NCBI GenBank assembly: GCA_002633005.1
Contig: NMRA01000798.1
Span: forward strand, 1-64,000
From: Phoronis australis
Taxonomy: Eukaryota; Animalia; Phoronida
Direction: 5' to 3'
Length of the DNA: 64,000 nt
In this document: positions 874 to 63,004 of the stretch, in pieces
Position numbering within the stretch: position 1 is the first letter of the stretch
How the letters are laid out: each line of letters opens with the position of its first letter
Program-made: the position numbers and the translations under genes
Notes under the pieces: model-generated
What the model saw: only the letters and a program-made list of their open reading frames with translations
What the model was told of the DNA's origin: nothing
Databases searched by the model: none

Positions 874-1219
874 TGGTTGTTTCTTTGTCCTTTCTGAACT
901 TCTCTGGGAAGTTTTATTAAAATCTCTTTAAGCTTCTGAAAACTTTGAAAATTGATAGCTGATTGACCAGCTTGTCTATGTATGTACTACTTCATGTACA
1001 AATCTATTGTGTCTTGTCATAAAGCCATCTAGTTCTCAATGAATTCGGTTTATCAATGGGCCTAGTAATGAATGATGATGATAATGATAATGGGAATTAT
1101 CTCATCTAGTACCATGGATTTGTGCCAAACCTGCTACAGAAATTCCAGTGAACAGAACTGTTACCTGTAATTTGGCTTTTTAACTGAACGTCTTGATGAG
1201 CATCTTGTTACACTTTTAG

Positions 1220-4200
1220 TTTCTGAGGGCATTGATTGCAACAGTCCTGTCAAGTTCGATGGTTCTACATGGTTGGAATACAGTAACCTAGGCATACAGA
1301 GGTGAGGTCTTATGTCAGCTATACAACTATGAGTATGTTAAAGGAGAATGCCACCCGTTTTAATTAGTCTGTTTTGCCGTCTTAATCGGTCTATATCCAC
1401 ATCGCCTTGCATACGGTCAACCTTACCTTGCCAAGAGGTGTCGCATTAACTTGTGAAGAAGGTGAGAAACGACGCTAGCGACGTCAGTGGTTCATATGCA
1501 GAGTGAATGCCGCTATGTTGCAGTGCATCGTTCCCGCTTGTCTGAACTAAGCAGCTGCGAGGAAAGCGGGTATATGTTTTTATTTTACTTCCTCGAGAGT
1601 CCGAAATGCTTAGGGAGTGGCTCATGGTAGTGAAGAATGAAATGTACGCTGTAAATAGCAAGTATGAGGCCTTGAAACACCTCCGTGTCTGTGGCCTGCA
1701 CTCCTGCAGACGTCGACAGTGCCTGACGAATCCCGGCTTACCAAATAACTCCATATGTTCCGTTGTCTGAGCTTGTTCATGGCACCTCTCTAGTATTTCT
1801 TCATCACTGTATTCCTGTTCGAATTGATAGCCTGTAAAACTTAACGATCCACCTGCGAAGTTGGGACTGATGAGCTCTAGTAGCTCGTCCTAAGTCGGGA
1901 TTGCGAGTTGCCATGTTGGCGTTTATTACTGAGTGTTCTGTTTCAAAATGAATTATTTTCACCCTAACCAATACTTATATAAAACCAAAACCAAGTCTGT
2001 CTCATTAGATGCAAATTGTAATGTCTTTGGAGTGTTCATGAGTGCAAATGATTTGAGAAGCCAGCAATGAATAAATCACTGCGTTACTGGCTTTAAGTGC
2101 AATAAAACTCAATTGACGGGACACCGAGGCCGTGTGAGCTCATGCTAATTTAGTGTTTGCTGGCAGAAACTGTTGTGAAACAACTCGATTTCCATCCCAC
2201 GGCCAGGTTTAGGGGAATCTTTATTTACCTTTACATTACTCAAATAATGATTTTCAATGTACAACTTCTGCCCTGACGGTGCTGTGGCCAAAGCGGAACC
2301 TGAATTCGTGGCCCCCGACGAGTAAGTAGATTTGCAGTTTCGTGGCTAATTCACTAATAATCACGTGCACATTACTTTGGCTCACTAGTATAGTATTTTC
2401 TTGACTGGAAGTTTAGTTTCCACTGAACTTTATGTTCGTGATGTCTTGTCAGTTTCCGAGCTAGTGGCCGGGATAACGAGTAAATCCAGTCGGCCGCGAC
2501 GGGCGTGATCGAGGTCCTCGAGGCACTGGCCAGGATAATAAGCGTTTTGTGTTTAGAACTCAACAAATCACAAGTCTAAACAATGCAGATCTAGGTTCTC
2601 CTGTCTGTATCTCACGGAAAATACTTGAAATACTCAAAATTATCTCCGAACAGACCCCAAACTCCTGCTACGGACCTTATTGGCCTGCCGAATTTTGTAG
2701 GCTAAGGTGTGTCCAAATACTAATAAATCCGTAAGAGCAAAATAAAACAACGCGTTTTTATAAGAACTCGGTGTATTTTTAAGGGTTTTACATCGAAGTT
2801 TGATGATTATTGGTGTTAAACGATGACTTCAAGCGATAAGCTGACACCAGTAACCCGTGTTGTGAACTGCTGAACAGACTGCGTGTGAAACCGATGACGT
2901 CATTGGATAATTTTAACACCTTCGTCTGCCTTCAGGTGTTAGGTAACGCAACTGTACGTGTCGTTATGGAGTACTACTACTCGATCTAAATTGATACAAA
3001 TTAGGTTGTTTTTTGGGTGGCATGCTCCTTTAAGTTTGATGGTTCTACATGGTTGGAATACAGTAACCTAGGCATACAGAGGTGAGCTCGTGTGTCAACT
3101 ATATGACTGAGTATGTCATGTTCGATGGTTCTACGTGGTTGTAATACAGTAACCTTGGCTTTCAGAGGTGAGCTCTTATTTAAGTTATATAACTATGAGT
3201 ATGTTAAGTTTGATGGTTCTACATGGTTGGAATATTGTAACCTAGGCATACAGAGGTGAACTTTTATGTTACTTACATAATTGTGAAGCTATAAGTGTTG
3301 TTATTTATGAAGAAAGTCATATACACACTTATTACATCTAAAAGTATTGATTTTACTGAAACAAAAATGTTCAGATGAGTTTGATCAAACGTGCTATTTC
3401 ACTTTACAGCCACTAAATTATTAGACTTCATCAGGGCTGCCTTATGGCTAGCTAAACAGGAACGTAACCAAAATGCAGGCGTGAGAGAAATCAGTCACGG
3501 GTCTTCTCAAGCCTACTCTCCGGATAGGGTAGCGCTCATGCTTACCTCCGGTTTGGTTAACGCCTCCCTCACGCTTTCGTTGCGCCACCCTCACGCTTTC
3601 GTTGTGCATCTCTCACGCTTATATCACACTTTCTCCACGCCTTCGCTGTGGTAACATATGAGGTGGTGCGCTGGGCTAATAAAAATAACATCTAAATCTG
3701 TGTGTGCACGTGGGGGCGTTGGTGTACCTGTCGAGTAATCTGTTGTTATGGCATCTTATACCAATGAGTTCTGACTTATTGCATAATTACATGTACTTGT
3801 CATACAAACAAACTCCTTTAGTTCATCTGGCATTACATTTATGTTGTCCATATTATGACTCCAAAGCCTGTCCCATCAATGACTTCTTGACCATGGTTTG
3901 TAAATACAAATAAACGCGACCCTCTATACATGTTCACAGTCATGTTTACATGGCTGTGGACTCCGTGAAATTCATCACTGCTGGATATACTTAATTTGCC
4001 CTAAAAAAGCCCACGCATCTTGATACATATGCATGCACATATGTATTGTCACTCCGTGGATTCTTACACAGCACTCGTGGAACAGAAAATTTCAATGAGC
4101 TCCCTTCTGGAGGTGACTGCATCTGAAATCCCCATCCCCTACTGCGTGTGTATGTTAGGCCCCCAACGTCTAGTGCAGGTTTATTTGTAGCTCCATCCCC

Positions 4201-7200
4201 TTATTATTTCAGGCCCACGTAGTCTCTGGAGAATTCTTCAGTAAAATAATTATAGCCGTCACCTGTCTGACTCGTCAAATGGCCGTGATCAGTTTTTGCA
4301 CATGATGCCTGAATTTGGGATAAGTACAGGCACATAATTCACGCGCTATGCTCTTGCAAATCACGAAGACAATTGAAATATTTTGTAATGTACAGGTGTG
4401 TCAACATTGTTTATATGTTTATTTCAAAAACAAATATACACATTTACAAGTGAGAAGTTAGGTCCTGGGGTCTGTTTCATGAAGTGACTTGATTTGACTA
4501 GAAAGGAATTTGGCCTTTAGCTCCTCATAACAATTTCTAAGAAATAGTTGAACCTCACCTGATCAAAATTCTATGAGAATATACACATCACTGTTAGTTA
4601 GAGATAATTTTTGTCAATTGTTTTTCGACTGTTATGAACTTATAATTAGTTAACTAAAACTTTATACAGCAATTCGTGAAATGGAACCGTAAGACCAAAT
4701 TTCTGTCTTTTAGTCACTTTTATGAAACAGACCCCAGAATCTGCATGTGTCAACAGAAAGAATTTGTAGGAGGGGACTATGATGGAATGCAACACAACTG
4801 GTTTCATTTCACTTACTTTCCCCTGTGTATACAGATATTGAGAAGTAATTACTTCAAGATATTATGTTGCTGCCTAAGTCACAAGTGGCTGTACAATGTT
4901 ATACTGGAAACTTGGTCGAGCTGGCCAATCACAGGTTTAATTTTTAATTTATGCTTAATGTTATGTTACTGCACATTACCTGATTGGAAAGTGAAATCGT
5001 CACTGTCATTGTCTGAAGTTTCCAATGTACTAAGTTTTCATTATTCTATTCTGCAGACAAATTACTGTTGGGGAATCCCGGGGGTGAATTATAGTTGATA
5101 AATATGCAGTTGAAAAGCTGCTCAAAAGAAAAGTTTGCATAAGGCGATTTTTTTTTCAAATGAGATTTAGTCTCAAAGTGTGCGGAACGGTTCCGCACTT
5201 TTTTATATCCACTTAGGGCCATAAAATTGGTATGAAACAAATCTATACCTTACCCTAAACATGTTTACAATATGTTACATTTTTATTTCCTCCATTAGCA
5301 TTTTCTTAATAAGAAGTTCAGTTTTTGCAATGCGGAATATTCCACACTGACTAGGGAATATTCCGCACTGACTGCGGAATATTCCGCAAAATTTGTACAG
5401 TGTATATCTAATATAATAAGAATTAATGTCAAATAATAAATCCACCAAAATGTACAATATTTTATGCAACTCATCACATATTCATGACATTCATCACATA
5501 TTCATGATATGTTTTTGCGAAGTATGTTGATTTGATAGCATTAAAGATAGTATTACTCACTTGCTGATTCTTGATGTTTTGGCTTTCAGTTGAGTAACTG
5601 GCCCATGCGGTACATCCACACATGTTTTAATGAGCTACATAGCAAACTAGATTGCGTATTGGCCACAAAGAATAGTTGCCTCGAGATCGCTGACCAGTAC
5701 CATATATATTGCAAACACAGTAGAAAATTTCTTTCCGGTGTTGTCAAAGTTCTTAGAGTTGTTTACTAGATGATTCTGGTGCTGAGAAATGTCACTTGAA
5801 ATAGGATACAGTACTTTGTTCTAGCCACGCTAAAGGAGTGAGGATAACAATAAAGATTGTCGTGACTAGTGAAGGCACTGGGAAACTCACGCCTGGCTCA
5901 AGTCTGGCTCACGGTGCGCCTGCACTTCCTTCACGCCTAACTCACGATAAGTCACGCTTACTTTCATGTCTGTTGTCACAGTCAATTAATGCCTCACTCT
6001 CCAGTTCTGGTCACGCCTAACCAGAGCAGAGGCAGCTCAGATGAAGTCTCATAATTCAGTGACTGTATTGTCTGTACCCTATCATTTCTCTTTCAGAAAG
6101 AAAAGTGAAACAAGGAATGATATAAGCCTGCGCTTCAAGACATCATCCCAGAATGGCCTACTGTTAATAATACACAAGTCCAACTCCGTCTCGGGTGACT
6201 ACTTGACTTTGGCTGTTGTAGGTGGTCGACTGGAGTTGTCCTACAATTTGGGAATGCAGTCAGCCGCCAATCTACATATACTGCGTTCTGGTGTACGTGT
6301 CAATGATGGCAAGTGGCATAAAGTGCACATCACTAGGTGAGCAAGCTTTACTTATTGATGTGGCCTTTTGCTAACCGTTTCACAAGCAACTGACTTTTCA
6401 GAACTTTCATGAAAAATGCTCGATTTCTTAAAGTTTGTAGCTTTGTCTGGATATTAAAGGCAAAGGCAACCTTTCTTCATGTCATTTTTAGTAGAAATAA
6501 GGTTCGTTGGTTATCCCAGACATATTTTTCAGTTAATTACAGCTTCTCATAATTTAATTAATTACTCATCCCCTACACTGGAAGTGAAGTTTAGGGAGTC
6601 AAGAATTACGTGCCAATTTGGTTCTGCGTTCGAGTTTACTGTGAGGATCAATACTACTGTTTCCTTTCATGCTTTTTTTTCTAAAACTGTCGTCACCACT
6701 TCTTTCGACGAGTATTCTACGACAAGCTGGGTTATTAGAGAACTCAATTACATTGGATTTAGGGATTGTTTAATTTGTAGTAACCTGAAATTGACTAGAG
6801 TCGGCGACCCATGTCACAGTGACTGTATTGACGTGAGTGACGCAGACATTGTTCATATACTATAAGGGGCTGAGGGCTATAGCCCCCACTTTTTTCAGTT
6901 CTGCGCTGCCCTTGGTATATGGGCGGTGCACTACAGGGGGGCTGGGGGTGCGTTAACCCCCCACATTTGTCAGTGCTGCATCTAATCAGCTATATACAAG
7001 TATGGAGATGACACAATTATACTCGCAAGCCAGACAGCGTGTGACATGTGGTCTGCCGTATTGATTATGAATGAAATGTAAGCTGGGGAACTCTCAGAAT
7101 AAAATTGAAATTTTAAATACTAACGAGGTTTTAAAATATTGGTAACTTAAAGCAATGTAAACTTGTGACCCACGCATTGCTTAAACGGTCATATAAGCCA

Positions 7201-10200
7201 TTGTAAAGACAAAATTCCTAATGCTTTGGCTGAAATTCTCATGGAGAGCTGCTAGGGCCTGGCAGGTTTTGCCAGCTCAGTCGAAGAGACAATCACTGAA
7301 AAAATTTGGAAAATATTTCCGTTATACTACGTCGTGGTATTAAACAGTGATTAATCTTTGCAAGTTTTTTCAAAAATAAAACGCATGTAAGGGGTGCTGA
7401 GGTGTCTCAAGAAATATTACTACGCTATGTTTCTTTAATTATCTGGTATTACTTGTCGTAGTACCTAATTCATCTGAGCATGGTGAACTAGTGGTTTGTA
7501 CAGTTTGAACGACATTCTCTCAAAATTCACAAAGTTGTGTCATAGACTCTGTTGTAAAACATCACGACAACTGCAATACATGTATATATACTAGTAGGCA
7601 GAGTGCACGTGAGACGATAATGAGTATATTCTGGTATGCAGCAACTGCAAGGCATGTTGACTGACTCGTAAACAAAAGCAAACGACTACTGAACTTATCA
7701 CAACAGAGGTAGAACAATGACTGACTTGATACCAAACACAATCAGACTACCGGGTATATGAAAACAAATGGTGTGAAATTCTTAACTCCCTAAATGTCAC
7801 TTTCAGAGTAGGGGACAAGTAATTAATTAAATTACGAAAAACTAATTAACTGAAAAATACGTCTGGGATGATCAACAAACTTTATTTTTTTTACTAAAAA
7901 TGACATGGAAAAGGGTTGCCTTCACCTGTAAGGAAGTGTTCAAACTACATTAGCCAATATTTCCCCAAGATTTAGCACCGCACTTGGACACCATGTAAGG
8001 CAGAGAATTAACTTGATGCACTGGAGGGGAGGCAACCCCTCATGCCTTATTGTTTGCATTCAGAGGGCAATTGGACAAGAGGCTTTAGTGTTGACTGGAA
8101 GTCAATTTGTTACACAGTGGCCAGGTGGTCACATTGTATTGCCCTTTCAGCTGTTTTAAAAACTAGACAGACCTTTGTGTAATGCCTTGCCGACAGATGT
8201 CCCTTTGGCGGTCGGTCTTATCTGTATAACTTACTGAATTTACTGGACAACTTGAATCATACTGTCTGAGAGGTTGGTTGATATAAATTTTCTGAAATTC
8301 TGCTGTTGCCACTTGTCATATATGGTGAGTGGCAACTCAGTTAATCTGTTACTCAGTTAACCTCAATCATTAGCTGGCCAATTTGCTCGACTCTAAGACT
8401 GTGACTGTGAAACTGTCAGGGCAAATATAATGAGACTACATTTGCATTTGGGCTATACCGATCAATATGCTGCCTTCTCGATTTGATCGCTGGCATTTGT
8501 TGTTAGATACATATCATGCTGTCAGGTTACAAGGTACCTAAACTACACGGTCAACAGACTCTTAAACACGGGCACGGATGCATGAACACGACCCACGGAC
8601 CTGCAAACACCATCCACTGACTCACAAACACGGGAACGGACTCACAAAACACGATCCACGCACCCAAATACATGGGACACGGACTCATATTCACAAAGAA
8701 ACACAGTTAACGGACAGCCAAACACGGGTCATGGACTCATCGGCTTCCTGGGTCAGCTGACATCTTCATTTTGTCTGTAAACCGTGTTTGGCTGTCCGTT
8801 AACCGTGAATATGAGTCCATGTCCCGTGTATTTGGGTGCGTGGATTGTGTTTTGTGAGTCAGTGGACAATGTTTGCAGGTCCGTGAGTCGTGTTCATGCG
8901 TCCGTGCCAGTGTTTATGAGTCCGTTGACTGTGTAGTTTAGCTATCCTTGGGTCAGGGCCACTGTGTGTCCAGCTCCAGACAGAATAAATGTATGCAATT
9001 TTAGGAACTAAGGTAATATTGTTTCTAAGTCATAAGATTCGGACACGAGTTGGCTAAAGCATCGAATCTGGTTTATATTTGCAAAAAATACATTACTCGC
9101 TTTTATCTTAATTCATTGAAAGGTTAACATTGAAGATCAAATCCAATTGATACCAACATTTAGGGTTATGGCGGTAATGTTTTATGCTCGACATATGTCC
9201 CGAAAATGGTAGGTGTGTCACAAACTCCGTTTCCAGAGATTAAAAGGAGACTGTATATAGGCGAAATACAGGTCACTTATTATGACACCATAACGGTACA
9301 GAAATATGAATGTAAAATAATAAATACACGGAAAATAATCGCTGGAAAGATGGGTAATAAAAAGCACAGCACTCAGGTGCGAGGAACTACCTGACCAATA
9401 AGGTGGTAGTGGGTGGGAAAAAATGGAGAGAGATTGAACTCGAACGTAAGTACAGCTGAAGCAAAGGTTTGACAGGAAACACATGATTAGTGAGAACAAA
9501 GGTAAACCCTAAGGACACGTGATAAAATATGAATAGCTTCAAACTAGTCTAACACATTGAACAATTGGAGTTGGTCAAAATTAGTCTGATGAACCCGCAA
9601 ACTATTAGTTTCCACTGAGCAGAAGGACTCTTGGTCATAGTTTTACTAGGTGTACATTTGCATCAAGTTTAAATAATGTCAATTTTATTTCTGTAGAAAT
9701 CACCGCAAGGGCCATTTGTTTGTGGACAATCAATACCATGTCACTGGTGTGTCCAAGGTTGGTGCAACTATGCTGGACACAGATGGTAAACTCTTCATGG
9801 GTGAGTCATGATCAGTTGGGGTCATATGAAAAGTTTTGGTGAAATTTTGTCTTGGCAATTCATTGAAATTAAGTCAGTTGTAGTACACAGTTAAAGGTGA
9901 GGTTGTGATTACCAACACACACACAAGATTGTGGTGATCATGGAACTGGCTATGTGAGATGAAAATATTGTGTTCTATTCTGTTTTGTTTATTTCCTCTA
10001 TTGGTTTACCTATAGTCATTTATAAAGTCTGTCAGTCATCTGTCCTTGTGCGCCAATGAAAGCTCAGTAATCTAGGATTGCCTCCTTTATAGTACCACGT
10101 TATATTTAACAATTTGTATTTTGATGAGGAAAAGACAAGCTGAAAAGTTTCTGAAAGCGTTAAGTGATTCTTCACTTATGTCGCATACAAGCAATTACCA

Positions 10201-10752
10201 AATTTTTCTTTTCTTTTTATTTTTCAGTGGATGATTAATTTGCTAGGTCCTGTAAACTTTACCAAATATTGTTTTATGACATTTACACAATACAAACTGT
10301 ACTGGGAGTAGACTTAAATTTTTTTATTCTTTGTTTCTGAAGATATTTGACAAAATAAAATTTCCCTTGCCAACCATATTGTGTGGTAAATAACTGAAGA
10401 GTCACTGTATTGCAGAAGCGATCATGCTGTCCACATTTTAATTAAAATTTGTCTTGTGGCCCATTATGGTTCAGTATGAAAAATAAAGGGATTGGATATA
10501 TTATCACTTCATCATCAAATAACTCCTCTATTAGCTTATTGTTCATTTTTTGAACTATTTATTTCCCAAACACTAACAATAAATACTGTAATATGTCTAG
10601 GGGGCAAGAAGAATTTACCTACTGGACTCCCTGCTGGCTACTACCAGGGCTTCAGAGGTTGTATTACTGACGTGAAGATTAACTCCTACGACTTACACAT
10701 GGCCCGTGATCAGGATAGTATCATGATAAAGCCACTTAACTTCTGTGAATGA
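1220..10752 (+). CDS. AGRN: Agrin, C-terminal exons encoding the last laminin-G (LG3) domain; 5' part lies outside the window. join(1220-1301,6097-6336,9697-9800,10601-10752)
   Basis: All junctions are GT-AG with consistent phases. Translation SEGIDCNSPVKFDGSTWLEYSNLGIQR/KKSETRNDISLRFKT..GDYLTLAVVGGRLELSYNLG..VNDGKWHKVHITR/NHRKGHLFVDN..GATMLDTDGKLFMG/GKKNLPTGLPAGYYQGFRGCITDVKIN..NFCE* matches agrin LG3 (vertebrate FDGRT.EY.N, GATQLDTDGALWLGG, GFVGC). Confidence 0.88.
1252..3280 (+). repeat. 86-88-bp minisatellite (4 units) made of the agrin exon 3' half plus the 5' splice site, interrupted by a Kolobok-like insertion
   Basis: Units start at 1252, 3032, 3118 and 3206, each resembling AAGTTyGATGGTTCTACATGGTTGGAATACAGTAACCTAGGCATACAGAG|GTGAG. 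Confidence 0.9.
1342..3029. mobile_element. Kolobok-like non-autonomous DNA transposon, copy 1
   Basis: TIR AGGAGAATGCCACCC / GGGTGGCATGCTCCT, TTAA duplicated at 1338-1341 and 3030-3033, RR..YY termini; colinear with 57956-59638. Confidence 0.85.
4467..4735. mobile_element. Harbinger-like MITE
   Basis: TIR GGGGTCTGTTTCATGAAGTGACT / AGTCACTTTTATGAAACAGACCCC, in a CTG/CAG context. Confidence 0.7.
5057..5083 (+). CDS. Candidate 27-nt alternative microexon of agrin at the z/B-equivalent site (adds 9 aa: QITVGESRG)
   Basis: Preceded by branch-like TACTAAG, a pyrimidine tract and TGCAG; followed by GG|GTGAAT. Phase 2-2, frame-preserving and stop-free between exons 1220-1301 and 6097-6336. No transcript evidence available. 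Confidence 0.45.
6458..7927. mobile_element. Kolobok-like element with long (~150 bp) imperfect TIRs
   Basis: 6458-6606 is the reverse complement of about 7777-7927; left flank TTAA, right flank GTAA (decayed TSD). Confidence 0.7.
8530..8950. mobile_element. Foldback/palindromic MITE with internal short subrepeats
   Basis: 8530-8727 is nearly the reverse complement of 8780-8950; repeated GACTCACAAACACGG-like modules; termini CAAGG / CCTTG. Confidence 0.75.
9180..9560 (+). repeat. Dispersed repeat family of unknown class (other copies at ~21998-22400, ~22560-22740 and, reversed, ~59780-60260)
   Basis: Shared blocks TATGTCCCGAAAA..CTCCGTTTCCAGAGA..TATAGGCGA..GGTACAGAAA..GGAAAGATGGG.AATAAAAAGC. 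Confidence 0.75.
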
Positions 10753-10993
10753 ACACTGCTGTGTAGACTATGAGGATGCAGCTGAGATTTTGTGGTCATA
10801 TTCATTGGATGAGGATCCATGGATCTATTTCAACTTTCTTTTTAGCTCAACTATTTATTGAGAATTGTTAGTTATAGGAATCAAGTGTGCCATTTGCATT
10901 TTAACAATATGTAAATCATTTTCACATTTGATTCATGGCATGAGTGGTCTCTATATGTGCTGTGTTGAGGTGTAATTATTAAAAAATGAAGAG

Positions 10994-10999
10994 AATAAA
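10994..10999 (+). promoter_or_regulatory. Possible polyadenylation signal of agrin
   Basis: AATAAA about 240 nt after the stop codon. Confidence 0.3.
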
Positions 11000-11371
11000 G
11001 TGTAAGAATATGTTGGTCAGGTATCTCATCATTTGCATTTCTGTGGCATTTTGGGACACTGTTGACACAAGGCCATATTATAACTGTTAAATATCTGTCT
11101 GTTGCTATCATTTTTATATTGTCTTGTATTGTATTGAATTTTTTCATGTTAATCATCATTTTATGTCAAGCATTGTTCATCACAGTCAAAGTCGCATAAA
11201 TCAGACATGCATAAGTCTGATTTTTGTTAATTTGGGTAGTTCACTTGTCATATACTCTTTGTGCACTGGAGCCTTCACATAAATCAGATTTTGCCATTCA
11301 CCGTTGAAATCTCTCGGTCTGGTTGGATATGACTTATGCGAGTTTTACCATTACCAAAGCTATTCAGAGAA

Positions 11372-40177: not shown

Positions 40178-40327
40178 CATGGGCGGCGCATCATAGGGGA
40201 CTGGGGGGGGGGGGGGCTATAGCCCCCCACTTTTTTGAGTGCTACGTCGCACATGGTCTATAGGCGGTGAACCACGGGGGGCTGAGGGGCTTTAGCCCCC
40301 ACTTTTTTCAGTGCTGCGTCGCCCATG
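40178..40327. mobile_element. CATG-terminated MITE dimer (related fragment at 6865-6985)
   Basis: CATGGGCG..CGCCCATG with exact 5-bp TSD GATTA. Confidence 0.7.
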
Positions 40328-42304
40328 GATTAGTAACGTTTGGGTAAATTCGCTGCTACACTCAATCCGTAATAAGAAGACCTCTCAAGCACGACTATCG
40401 TGGCCATTCATAATTTCCCAGCGCTGTGGGCAGGAACTGATCACACTGTTTTGTTTCCTAACAGTTCCAAAATGTAATAGTCTGCAGACAATTTTCAGCA
40501 ATATGGACTCCACACAGGTGGGCTTCGATAAGTACATGTTGAAAATATGACTAAAAGACTTTTCTTCAATGTGTGAGCTCCTGTCACTGCGTTGTTGCCG
40601 TAACCCTAACCACGATAATCATCTTCATCTGGTACACCATGCTACTCCGGCCAACGTTCCAAGGATCATTGCTGCTATAGGTTTGGGACTTCGTATTTTT
40701 GCTTCACTGTCGAACATGGCGCAAGATGAACATAATTTGCGCGGTTCTACATGAGCAAAGTTAAGTGCTGCATCAGCAATTTTACTGTAATACTACTAGG
40801 CGTTGGCCCGTTATTCAAAGCTCCTCTTACCGCTAATTAGGCAGCATGCCATTGGGTTCAACTGTGGCTGTGGAGCTATATTGTCAGTTGTTTTTTTTGA
40901 GTGGGGATTGAAATTTTTAGCCGATTAATTTGGTGACATTTTACATTGTGTATCAGGGCATTAAAAGTTAAAGTGAACACATACTTGTGGCTTTATTGGT
41001 ACGGCGCTAGTTAAAATCCCCATCAATATATCTTCCTGGGAAATCGCACCCTTTGCCTTTCCCCACTGCTGCCCAGAGTTACGCGATCATGTGCAATTTT
41101 ATGTTAGAGAATGATTGCGATTTCCATAAAATTCGTCACCCTAAAAACGTGAGCATTTTTCAAAAAAAAAATCGTTTTAATCGAAAAGATTGATGCAGTT
41201 TGACCGAAAATTGCAGCATTAGAGACGAAGGAGTGGAAAGGGCGAAACATTTTTGTTGTTCATTTTTCGGTTTACTCAGCCACCTCATTACATATTATCG
41301 ACGCTCGTTGGTGTGCATACCCCATCCAAATTGGAACTAGATGTCCGTTATTGGGGAGAAGGGTGGTTGGCGTTTTTCAATGCAAATCTTCAAATGATGT
41401 CGAAAAACATTGTGAGGAGTCTGTACCGTTGCAGTTTTTTCAGATCCTGTACCGGTGTTCCAAATACAAACGCCCCGTTATATTACTTAGTTAGTAAGAA
41501 ATGACCACAAGGTGGCGAAGTTAGCGTTTTTGTCACCACAAAGTTCATATCGGAACTTGCTCAACTGTCAATGTTGGGAAAGTGTCCTCACATTTTATCA
41601 AGCAACTTATCACTGCTTAAGATAGCGCCGCAGGAAATAGTCAGCACTGGTGAAAGATCTGGAGAACTTGCCGGTGTGGCATTAAAATTTTTACCCCGTA
41701 AATGAATTACGCAAACGTACAATATGAACACGGTCATTTTTTACGTTGAAAAAGACACGAGCCGTTTTTAAGGAGGTCTACGTGAAAAAGTGACTTTAAG
41801 TAAAATTTTCAACAAACATTACGTGAGTGTTAAAAAATGCGTCCCGACCAATCCGGCAATGAGATCACGGGCTCTCAGCACAGATACTGGTACATATTGT
41901 TTATTGTCGGGACATTTAATTAAGTTATTGACAAGATTAGCAGCTAGTGCTATTTAAACTGAGAAAATTACGAATTTCAGATTGAAGATTATTTCAAGTA
42001 GTGCGTTTAAGTTACAATGCATCGATTTTTACAAGAATTCGTATTCACTTTTTATGGAAGTCATCGTGCAAGTTATTTTCTCAAAAATTCGTTCTTAAAT
42101 TTAAACAAATATTCTACTACGTTGATTTCTGTTTTTTACGACCAGACAAGCCTCGCTGAGCGTACACAATGGGTCAATTCAGCAGCAGGGAGTGTTGGCG
42201 CCTTGCGGCCTTTGATATTGCGGTGTACCATCGGTTTGTGGTTGTTCGGAAAAATTACACCGATTGAAGCTTTTACGAATGTGTGAAAAACGCAGAAAAG
42301 AAAT

Positions 42305-42875
42305 CTGAAACTAAATAAGGCGATCCAAATCCTCTCAAGGATGCCACTGTTTCACGAAATGTAGAATATATATAGGTAAATAAAACAACAAGAATGGATC
42401 AACTGAAAATTATTCTGATTGCATCACCAACAATATTATTTACCTTATAACATGTAAAAAATGTTCTATCCAATACGTAGGACAAACTCAACATAATCTA
42501 CAAACTCGGTTTCGTAATCATAGATTTAACATAATACATAGAAACATACCTGATACTATAGGTATCATTTCAATTCCAAAAACCATAATCTTCATTACAA
42601 ATAATAGAAAAACTCCAATACCCCAGTACCCCTCACAGACTCAAAAGAGAACAATTTTGGATAGATAAGCTTGAACCTAATGGATTAAACATAAACACTT
42701 CTTAAATTATATCCTTGAATTTTTTCTGCAACTATGTATCATATTCATTACGCCACATCTTAAATGTCAATTGTCATATAGTGTTTGATTTTACTTTATT
42801 TCTGTTTCTGTTGACGAAGGATGTTATTATATCCGAAAATTTCAGTTGATCCATTCTTGTTGTTTTATTTACCTA
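42305..42875 (+). mobile_element. Short Penelope-like element copy (GIY-YIG fragment plus 3' repeat, with an inverted terminal segment)
   Basis: 42410-42705 encodes ..TNNIIYLITCKKCSIQYVGQTQHNLQTRFRNHR.. and closely matches 53439-53760 reversed; 42372-42410 is inverted relative to 42838-42875. Confidence 0.85.

Positions 42876-44137: not shown

Positions 44138-63004
<18,867 letters not shown>

Follow-up and report, generated by a model that had tools for sequence, protein, structure and literature searches.

In the textbook example of a neuron-specific microexon, the z switch of agrin makes a synapse organiser out of a matrix protein. The vertebrate z loop is described as hyperflexible and as lying beside the Ca2+ site (PMC6966886), and the insert-free vertebrate form is reported to bind alpha-dystroglycan strongly (PMC1939731). 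The accessible text of Hossain et al. (2025; PMC12445529), in which nematode and sea urchin were the only outgroups checked and no z insert is reported for either, calls Z exons with the motif N-x-I/V/F a chordate-specific innovation, a statement repeated in the accessible part of PMC12724666. According to the same text, the cloned Z6/Z5 exons of Ciona are very divergent, depend on Nova and have a YCAY-rich downstream intron, the amphioxus and sea-urchin introns at the z site are in phase 2 (S2/S3 Figs), and a constitutive N-x-I/V precedes the z site in all agrins aligned. As Ciona and amphioxus Z exons have already been published (Hossain et al. 2025), the novelty that the original prediction attached to z exons outside vertebrates must be given up.

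Further afield, the available portions of the literature describe no insert in Trichoplax, insects or the nematode (Banyai et al. 2010, PMC2874008; C. elegans paper), PCR having found no z insert in C. elegans agr-1, and place agrin expression in larval neural/epithelial cells of Platynereis (PMC5913682). Spiralians are absent from the accessible parts of the published agrin z-site alignments compared here, and spiralian z-site inserts appeared in no title or abstract opening in a literature search whose coverage stopped short of most subscription papers, bioRxiv supplements and microexon databases. Here we describe a candidate z-site microexon in a spiralian agrin gene, together with optional inserts that gene models of a brachiopod and two gastropods place there; these inserts, one of which carries N-x-I, are the stronger result.

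A spiralian agrin and its z-site intron

The window (that is, the whole stretch of 64,000 nucleotides that was analysed) contains the final four coding exons of a LamG domain (Table 1). Of 150 HMMER hits, the one that matched the full domain best was Lingula anatina agrin (88 of 172 residues identical), and agrin chains made up all five PDB matches for each of the last two exons; a protein search by word matching, with a single exon as query, gave no match at E<=0.001. In an LG3 tree of 41 hand-picked rows, the window was placed inside the spiralian agrins (98/88) and, with weaker support, beside Lingula and Capitella (91/89). The gene is a spiralian agrin, and the predicted identity is upheld both by the PDB matches of the last two exons and by the tree. 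On the pikachurin side of that tree, one row (P0046) has a long additional segment at the counterpart of the z site, which suggests that the loop may take inserts in the sister family too.

Table 1. Features of the agrin locus in the window.
Feature	Position	Strand	Details
Agrin constitutive exon upstream of z site	1220..1301	+	Encodes the linker and the first strands of LG3, ..FDGSTWLEYSNLGIQR; phase 2 at its 3' end; sense-strand read depth 16-32, joint to exon at 6097, translation
Non-autonomous DNA-transposon-like insertion	1342..3029	.	Terminal inverted repeats that begin with AGG; target site TTAA duplicated
Tandem array of three partial copies: ~50 nt from the 3' end of the upstream exon, donor and intron start	3032..3269	+	Self-BLAST 80-95%
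Candidate 3' splice site	5028..5056	+	Branch-point-like TACTAAG 5028-5034, pyrimidine-rich tract 5035-5051, TGCAG 5052-5056
Candidate phase-2 cassette microexon, 27 nt	5057..5083	+	Adds QITVGESRG at agrin z site; in frame
Candidate weak 5' splice site GTGAAT	5084..5089	+	Donor score 1.9, against 4.8-6.9 for three real donors
YCAY cluster, 6 in 45 nt	5471..5505	+	Downstream of candidate; a short tandem duplication accounts for part of it
Agrin LG3 exon downstream of z site	6097..6336	+	Pfam Laminin_G; reads and joints
Agrin LG3 exon (..GATMLDTDGKLF..)	9697..9800	+	PDB matches agrin chains only, best E 1.7e-5; joints
Final coding exon of agrin, including the stop codon	10601..10752	+	PDB matches agrin chains only, best E 0.0065; joint and 3' UTR reads

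The intron between the first two of these exons (1302-6096) is in phase 2 and lies 13 residues after the FDG motif. Without an insert, 24 residues separate FDG from the next strand, both in the window and in Branchiostoma and each of the 15 named spiralian species of our survey. Position and phase agree with the amphioxus and sea-urchin z-site introns of the published figures, so that the assignment to the z site stands. Inside the intron, the predicted succession of TACTAAG, pyrimidine tract, TGCAG, 27 nt and GTGAAT is found complete and in place; the 27 nt contain no stop and keep the frame with their AG/GT sites, translation agrees with an insertion of QITVGESRG, and the peptide was rightly said to lack N-x-I, there being no N-x-I/V/F within it or, in the inclusion form, anywhere between FDG and the next strand. 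It is the sequence pattern that is confirmed, and the 27-mer stays a candidate exon.

Splice sites were scored with generic position-weight matrices made for this analysis. The candidate acceptor (5.6) falls inside the range of three real acceptors (7.5, 2.4 and -0.5) and the candidate donor below all three real donors. The z-site intron contains 155 AG..GT segments of 6-60 nt that are in frame and free of stops, and the 27-mer ranks first among them; a scan of this intron lists 19 candidates that carry N-x-I/V/F, none with a strong acceptor by inspection. The last real acceptor of the gene (10570-10600) combines ACTAAC at about -28 with a poor pyrimidine tract, and the branch-like motif of the candidate stands at a similar distance.

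The main alternative is that the 27-mer is a chance pseudo-exon and that this agrin is always spliced 1301|6097, as C. elegans agr-1 appears to be in the available account of its PCR. The weak donor favours this, as do segments of equal summed score, which turned up in 5 of the 24 control tiles (4.8 kb each) and in 21 of 200 simulations with a fourth-order Markov model; however, these chance occurrences drop to 1 of 24 and 3 of 200 once a branch-point motif is also counted. Given that the scoring thresholds were fixed on the candidate itself, the chance rate is about 2-20% per intron.

The intron also carries repeats. The insertion of 1.7 kb at its upstream end, which we take to be Kolobok-like, has a second copy at 57952-59648 (self-BLAST, 88% over 1734 nt), gave no Pfam match in the open reading frames scanned from that second copy, and is heavily covered by RNA reads that come from other copies. 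Next to it, the partly decayed exon copies could possibly act as decoy 5' splice sites. They were rejected as alternative exons: copy 2 has an in-frame stop (TAA), and the nearest AG before copy 3 gives, by inspection, 47 nt.

Elsewhere in the window, a reverse transcriptase with a GIY-YIG endonuclease in split frames (53442-55331, minus strand), presumably a Penelope-like element, a second GIY-YIG fragment (42384-42665, plus strand) and an aromatic amino acid hydroxylase exon closest to phenylalanine hydroxylase (62768-63004, plus strand; E 5e-24) were observed. A weak Fz match at 40296-40547, considered as a MuSK/Ror neighbour, was discarded as it lies below the Pfam cutoff and has no PDB match. 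A metagenome scan returned three loci, two of them (L001 and L002) at 36% identity; the third, L003, proved to be a non-agrin, bacterial-type open reading frame.

Transcripts and possible splicing regulators

Reads over 1100-11300 came from four runs under one species label (one contig set and three raw RNA runs, tissue unstated, with about 18-19% of each read set used). The skip junction is supported by 32 reads in the three raw runs (13, 11 and 8) and by one contig; it was placed as 1295>6095 with four other letters, which we read as 1301|6097 with two synonymous differences. Intron 1302-6096 is therefore real and the skip form is expressed. Against these 32 skip reads, no joint to or from 5057-5083 occurs among the joints listed (15 of 55), which again favours a pseudo-exon; as 17 reads support the weakest of the listed joints that lack a contig, inclusion probably does not give the major form. 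In the 341-nt bin that holds the candidate, sense-strand depth was 1.46, 0.22 and 0.08, which sets a ceiling on inclusion of about 18, 2 and 1 reads if the aligner places 27-nt pieces, and the contig set has zero depth there; as this bin borders repeats, its depth is no evidence of inclusion. The weight of the skip reads against the exon is reduced by their shallow depth, their unstated tissue and their fixed exonic differences from the window at several sites in 1231-10776 (for example, 1231, 10629 and 10776), which mean that the source of the RNA may be a diverged population or a close species.

Two types of regulator are conceivable. The downstream intron has 29 YCAY motifs, against 19.5 +/- 3.4 in shuffles, an excess matched in 1 of 300 shuffles and in 3 of 126 tiles, and clusters of five or more number 8 in 128 kb. 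The cluster at 5471-5505 could possibly be a Nova/pasilla-type enhancer, and repeat remnants may be the source of the excess.

The second type is the eMIC code, which the accessible text of a bioRxiv report (10.1101/2021.02.24.432780) describes as a long AG exclusion zone, UGC near the acceptor, a CUAAY branch point and a long pyrimidine tract, adding that there are hotspots for new exons in orthologous genes. The candidate resembles the eMIC/Srrm234-dependent neural microexons so described in its length of 27 nt, its preserved frame, its nearby branch-like motif and the UGC at its acceptor, and resembles those of the fly in its weak donor. Unlike them, it has a short AG-free zone (21 nt), CTAAG in place of CUAAY and no UCUC tract, and its UGC is found only inside TGCAG. 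Given the weak donor, the 21-nt zone and the deviating branch point, the match to the code is partial.

Optional z-site inserts predicted in other spiralians

Our survey of the z site comprised 38 database gene models from 15 named spiralian species; P0224, P0230 and P0232 (fragmentary or divergent and unaligned at the site) and short Logan fragments were dropped. Models with and without an insert occur in three of the 15 species (Lingula, Littorina saxatilis and Pomacea canaliculata), and no insert was seen in the models of the other 12, several of them with one model each. In Lingula anatina, the RefSeq models X1-X4 and X7 have 12 additional residues that are missing from X5 and X6 (for example, XP_013410175.1 versus XP_023932252.1), and a second copy on another contig has the same 12-residue insert. 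In Littorina saxatilis (XP_070206822.1, XP_070206823.1 and XP_070206824.1 among the isoform models), X3 has no insert, X2 has seven residues and X1, X4 and X5 have a different ten, whereas in Pomacea canaliculata the RefSeq model has ten (XP_025080255.1) and the GenBank model none (PVD37045.1). All these inserts belong to automatic predicted models. The junction residue changes across them (K to N at the start, K to I or E at the end), a pattern that fits phase-2 cassette exons, as we infer them to be. Neither 15 arthropod models nor one Ptychodera model show an insert or an isoform difference at the z site.

In an AlphaFold model of the Lingula insert form, the insert lies in a loop of low confidence (667-678; pLDDT <50 at 667-669 and 671-678), which agrees with the hyperflexible z loop described in the accessible text of PMC6966886, and the LG domain of this model superposes on agrin LG3 of 3v64 (Z 28.7, rmsd 2.5, 185 aligned). 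The spiralian gene models make it likely that z-site splicing is not limited to chordates, contrary to the published view. They also bear on the pseudo-exon reading from both sides: most spiralian models have no insert, as that reading would have it, but the window candidate is the top-ranked one in the very intron where related animals have inserts of 7-12 residues. Taken with the splice-site scores and the RNA reads, this leaves a chance pseudo-exon as a serious contender that we place somewhat below even probability.

A further alternative is a real exon descended from an ancestral bilaterian z exon, in which neural inclusion would feed an LRP-family/MuSK-like pathway through a peptide that has since diverged. 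The intron and its phase are common to chordates and spiralians, and divergence need not speak against descent, the Nova-dependent Z exons of Ciona being described as very divergent as well. The constitutive motif is N-E-I or N-E-V, the triplet also found in vertebrate z8, in most molluscs; it is degenerate in four of the 15 named spiralians (Lingula, Littorina, Solemya and Liolophura) and reads N-L-G before the z site in the window (1280-1301). In Littorina saxatilis the constitutive position reads S-E-V, so that its N-x-V is lost, and the seven-residue insert of X2 (P0175, XP_070206823.1, near residue 1629) contains N-T-I, as common descent might predict. However, N-x-I is found in one of four spiralian model inserts, for which the chance of at least one is about 22%, and the window insert has no asparagine. 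The lack of an isoform difference in the arthropod and Ptychodera models, and of any insert reported for urchin or nematode in the published material available, likewise argues against descent, which we regard as unlikely. The inserts are also unlike one another and unlike QITVGESRG; their mutual dissimilarity fits repeated origin. Motif loss and insert presence showed no significant association (2 of 4 versus 1 of 11, p=0.15).

That the gene is instead pikachurin or another LamG protein, which would void the z-site comparison, is very improbable: the exon at 6097 alone scores alike against agrin and pikachurin PDB chains (37.6 versus 34.9 bits) and the constitutive N-x-I/V is absent from the window, but the last two exons match agrin only and the tree parts the 32 agrin-side rows from the pikachurin- and perlecan-like rows (98/93).

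Proposed reading and relation to known z exons

On balance, we lean towards reading the 27-mer as a genuine cassette exon, restricted in tissue and located at a hotspot of recurrent insertion. We would give about even chances to the fuller reading, in which this real exon is mostly skipped, its inclusion is restricted and probably neural, and its origin is independent of chordate Z exons. In such a scenario, a usually skipped cassette exon would lengthen the flexible LG3 loop by nine residues in a few cell types, probably neurons. It might be recognised by an eMIC/Srrm234-type mechanism through its branch point and UGC-containing acceptor, or by a Nova/pasilla-type protein bound to the downstream YCAY sites, and the hotspot intron would have gained it independently of the chordate Z exons. 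The longer loop, next to the Ca2+ site, may then alter the binding of glycans or other partners. As N-x-I/V/F is absent from the insert, a role as LRP4 peptide ligand would not be expected, and we suggest that the insert probably tunes LG3 ligand binding.

More tentatively, and with much more doubt than belief, we consider the possibility that alternative z-site microexon splicing is widespread in Spiralia, with an LRP-binding N-x-I in some lineages, and that the switch either predates chordates or has re-evolved. If so, Littorina, whose constitutive N-x-V has been lost, would gain N-T-I only via its seven-residue z exon, and the window exon would be a further, motif-free version of the z switch. 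Optional inserts in a brachiopod, in two gastropods and possibly in the window animal would make this intron a bilaterian-wide site of regulated microexons. The spiralian inserts make the origin of the z switch, whether ancestral or repeated, directly testable.

The window candidate can be compared with three described groups of z-site inserts, with the published ones taken as far as their accessible text describes them. Like vertebrate z8, z11 and z19, it lies in the agrin gene, in the LG3 loop, 13 residues after FDG (PMC6966886, PMC12445529), and its nine residues compare with 8-19 in vertebrate z exons. In contrast to vertebrate agrin, the window insert has no N-x-I/V motif and there is one candidate exon rather than two; neural inclusion and LRP4/MuSK activation are properties of the vertebrate z exons. 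Among the properties of a chordate-type Z exon, it has the position, phase 2 and the form of a frame-preserving microexon of about 5-11 codons, and lacks N-x-I/V/F. As in Ciona and amphioxus, a cryptic candidate microexon sits in the same intron, in phase 2 as in the amphioxus sequence, and a YCAY-rich intron follows it as in Ciona; unlike the Ciona and amphioxus Z exons, it does not encode N-x-F/V/I, and those of Ciona have been cloned and shown to depend on Nova. The window animal is a spiralian and thus outside the range given by Hossain et al. (2025). The third group is formed by the Lingula, Littorina and Pomacea models, whose insert sequences are unrelated to QITVGESRG but which place an optional insert of 7-12 residues at the identical agrin LG3 site.
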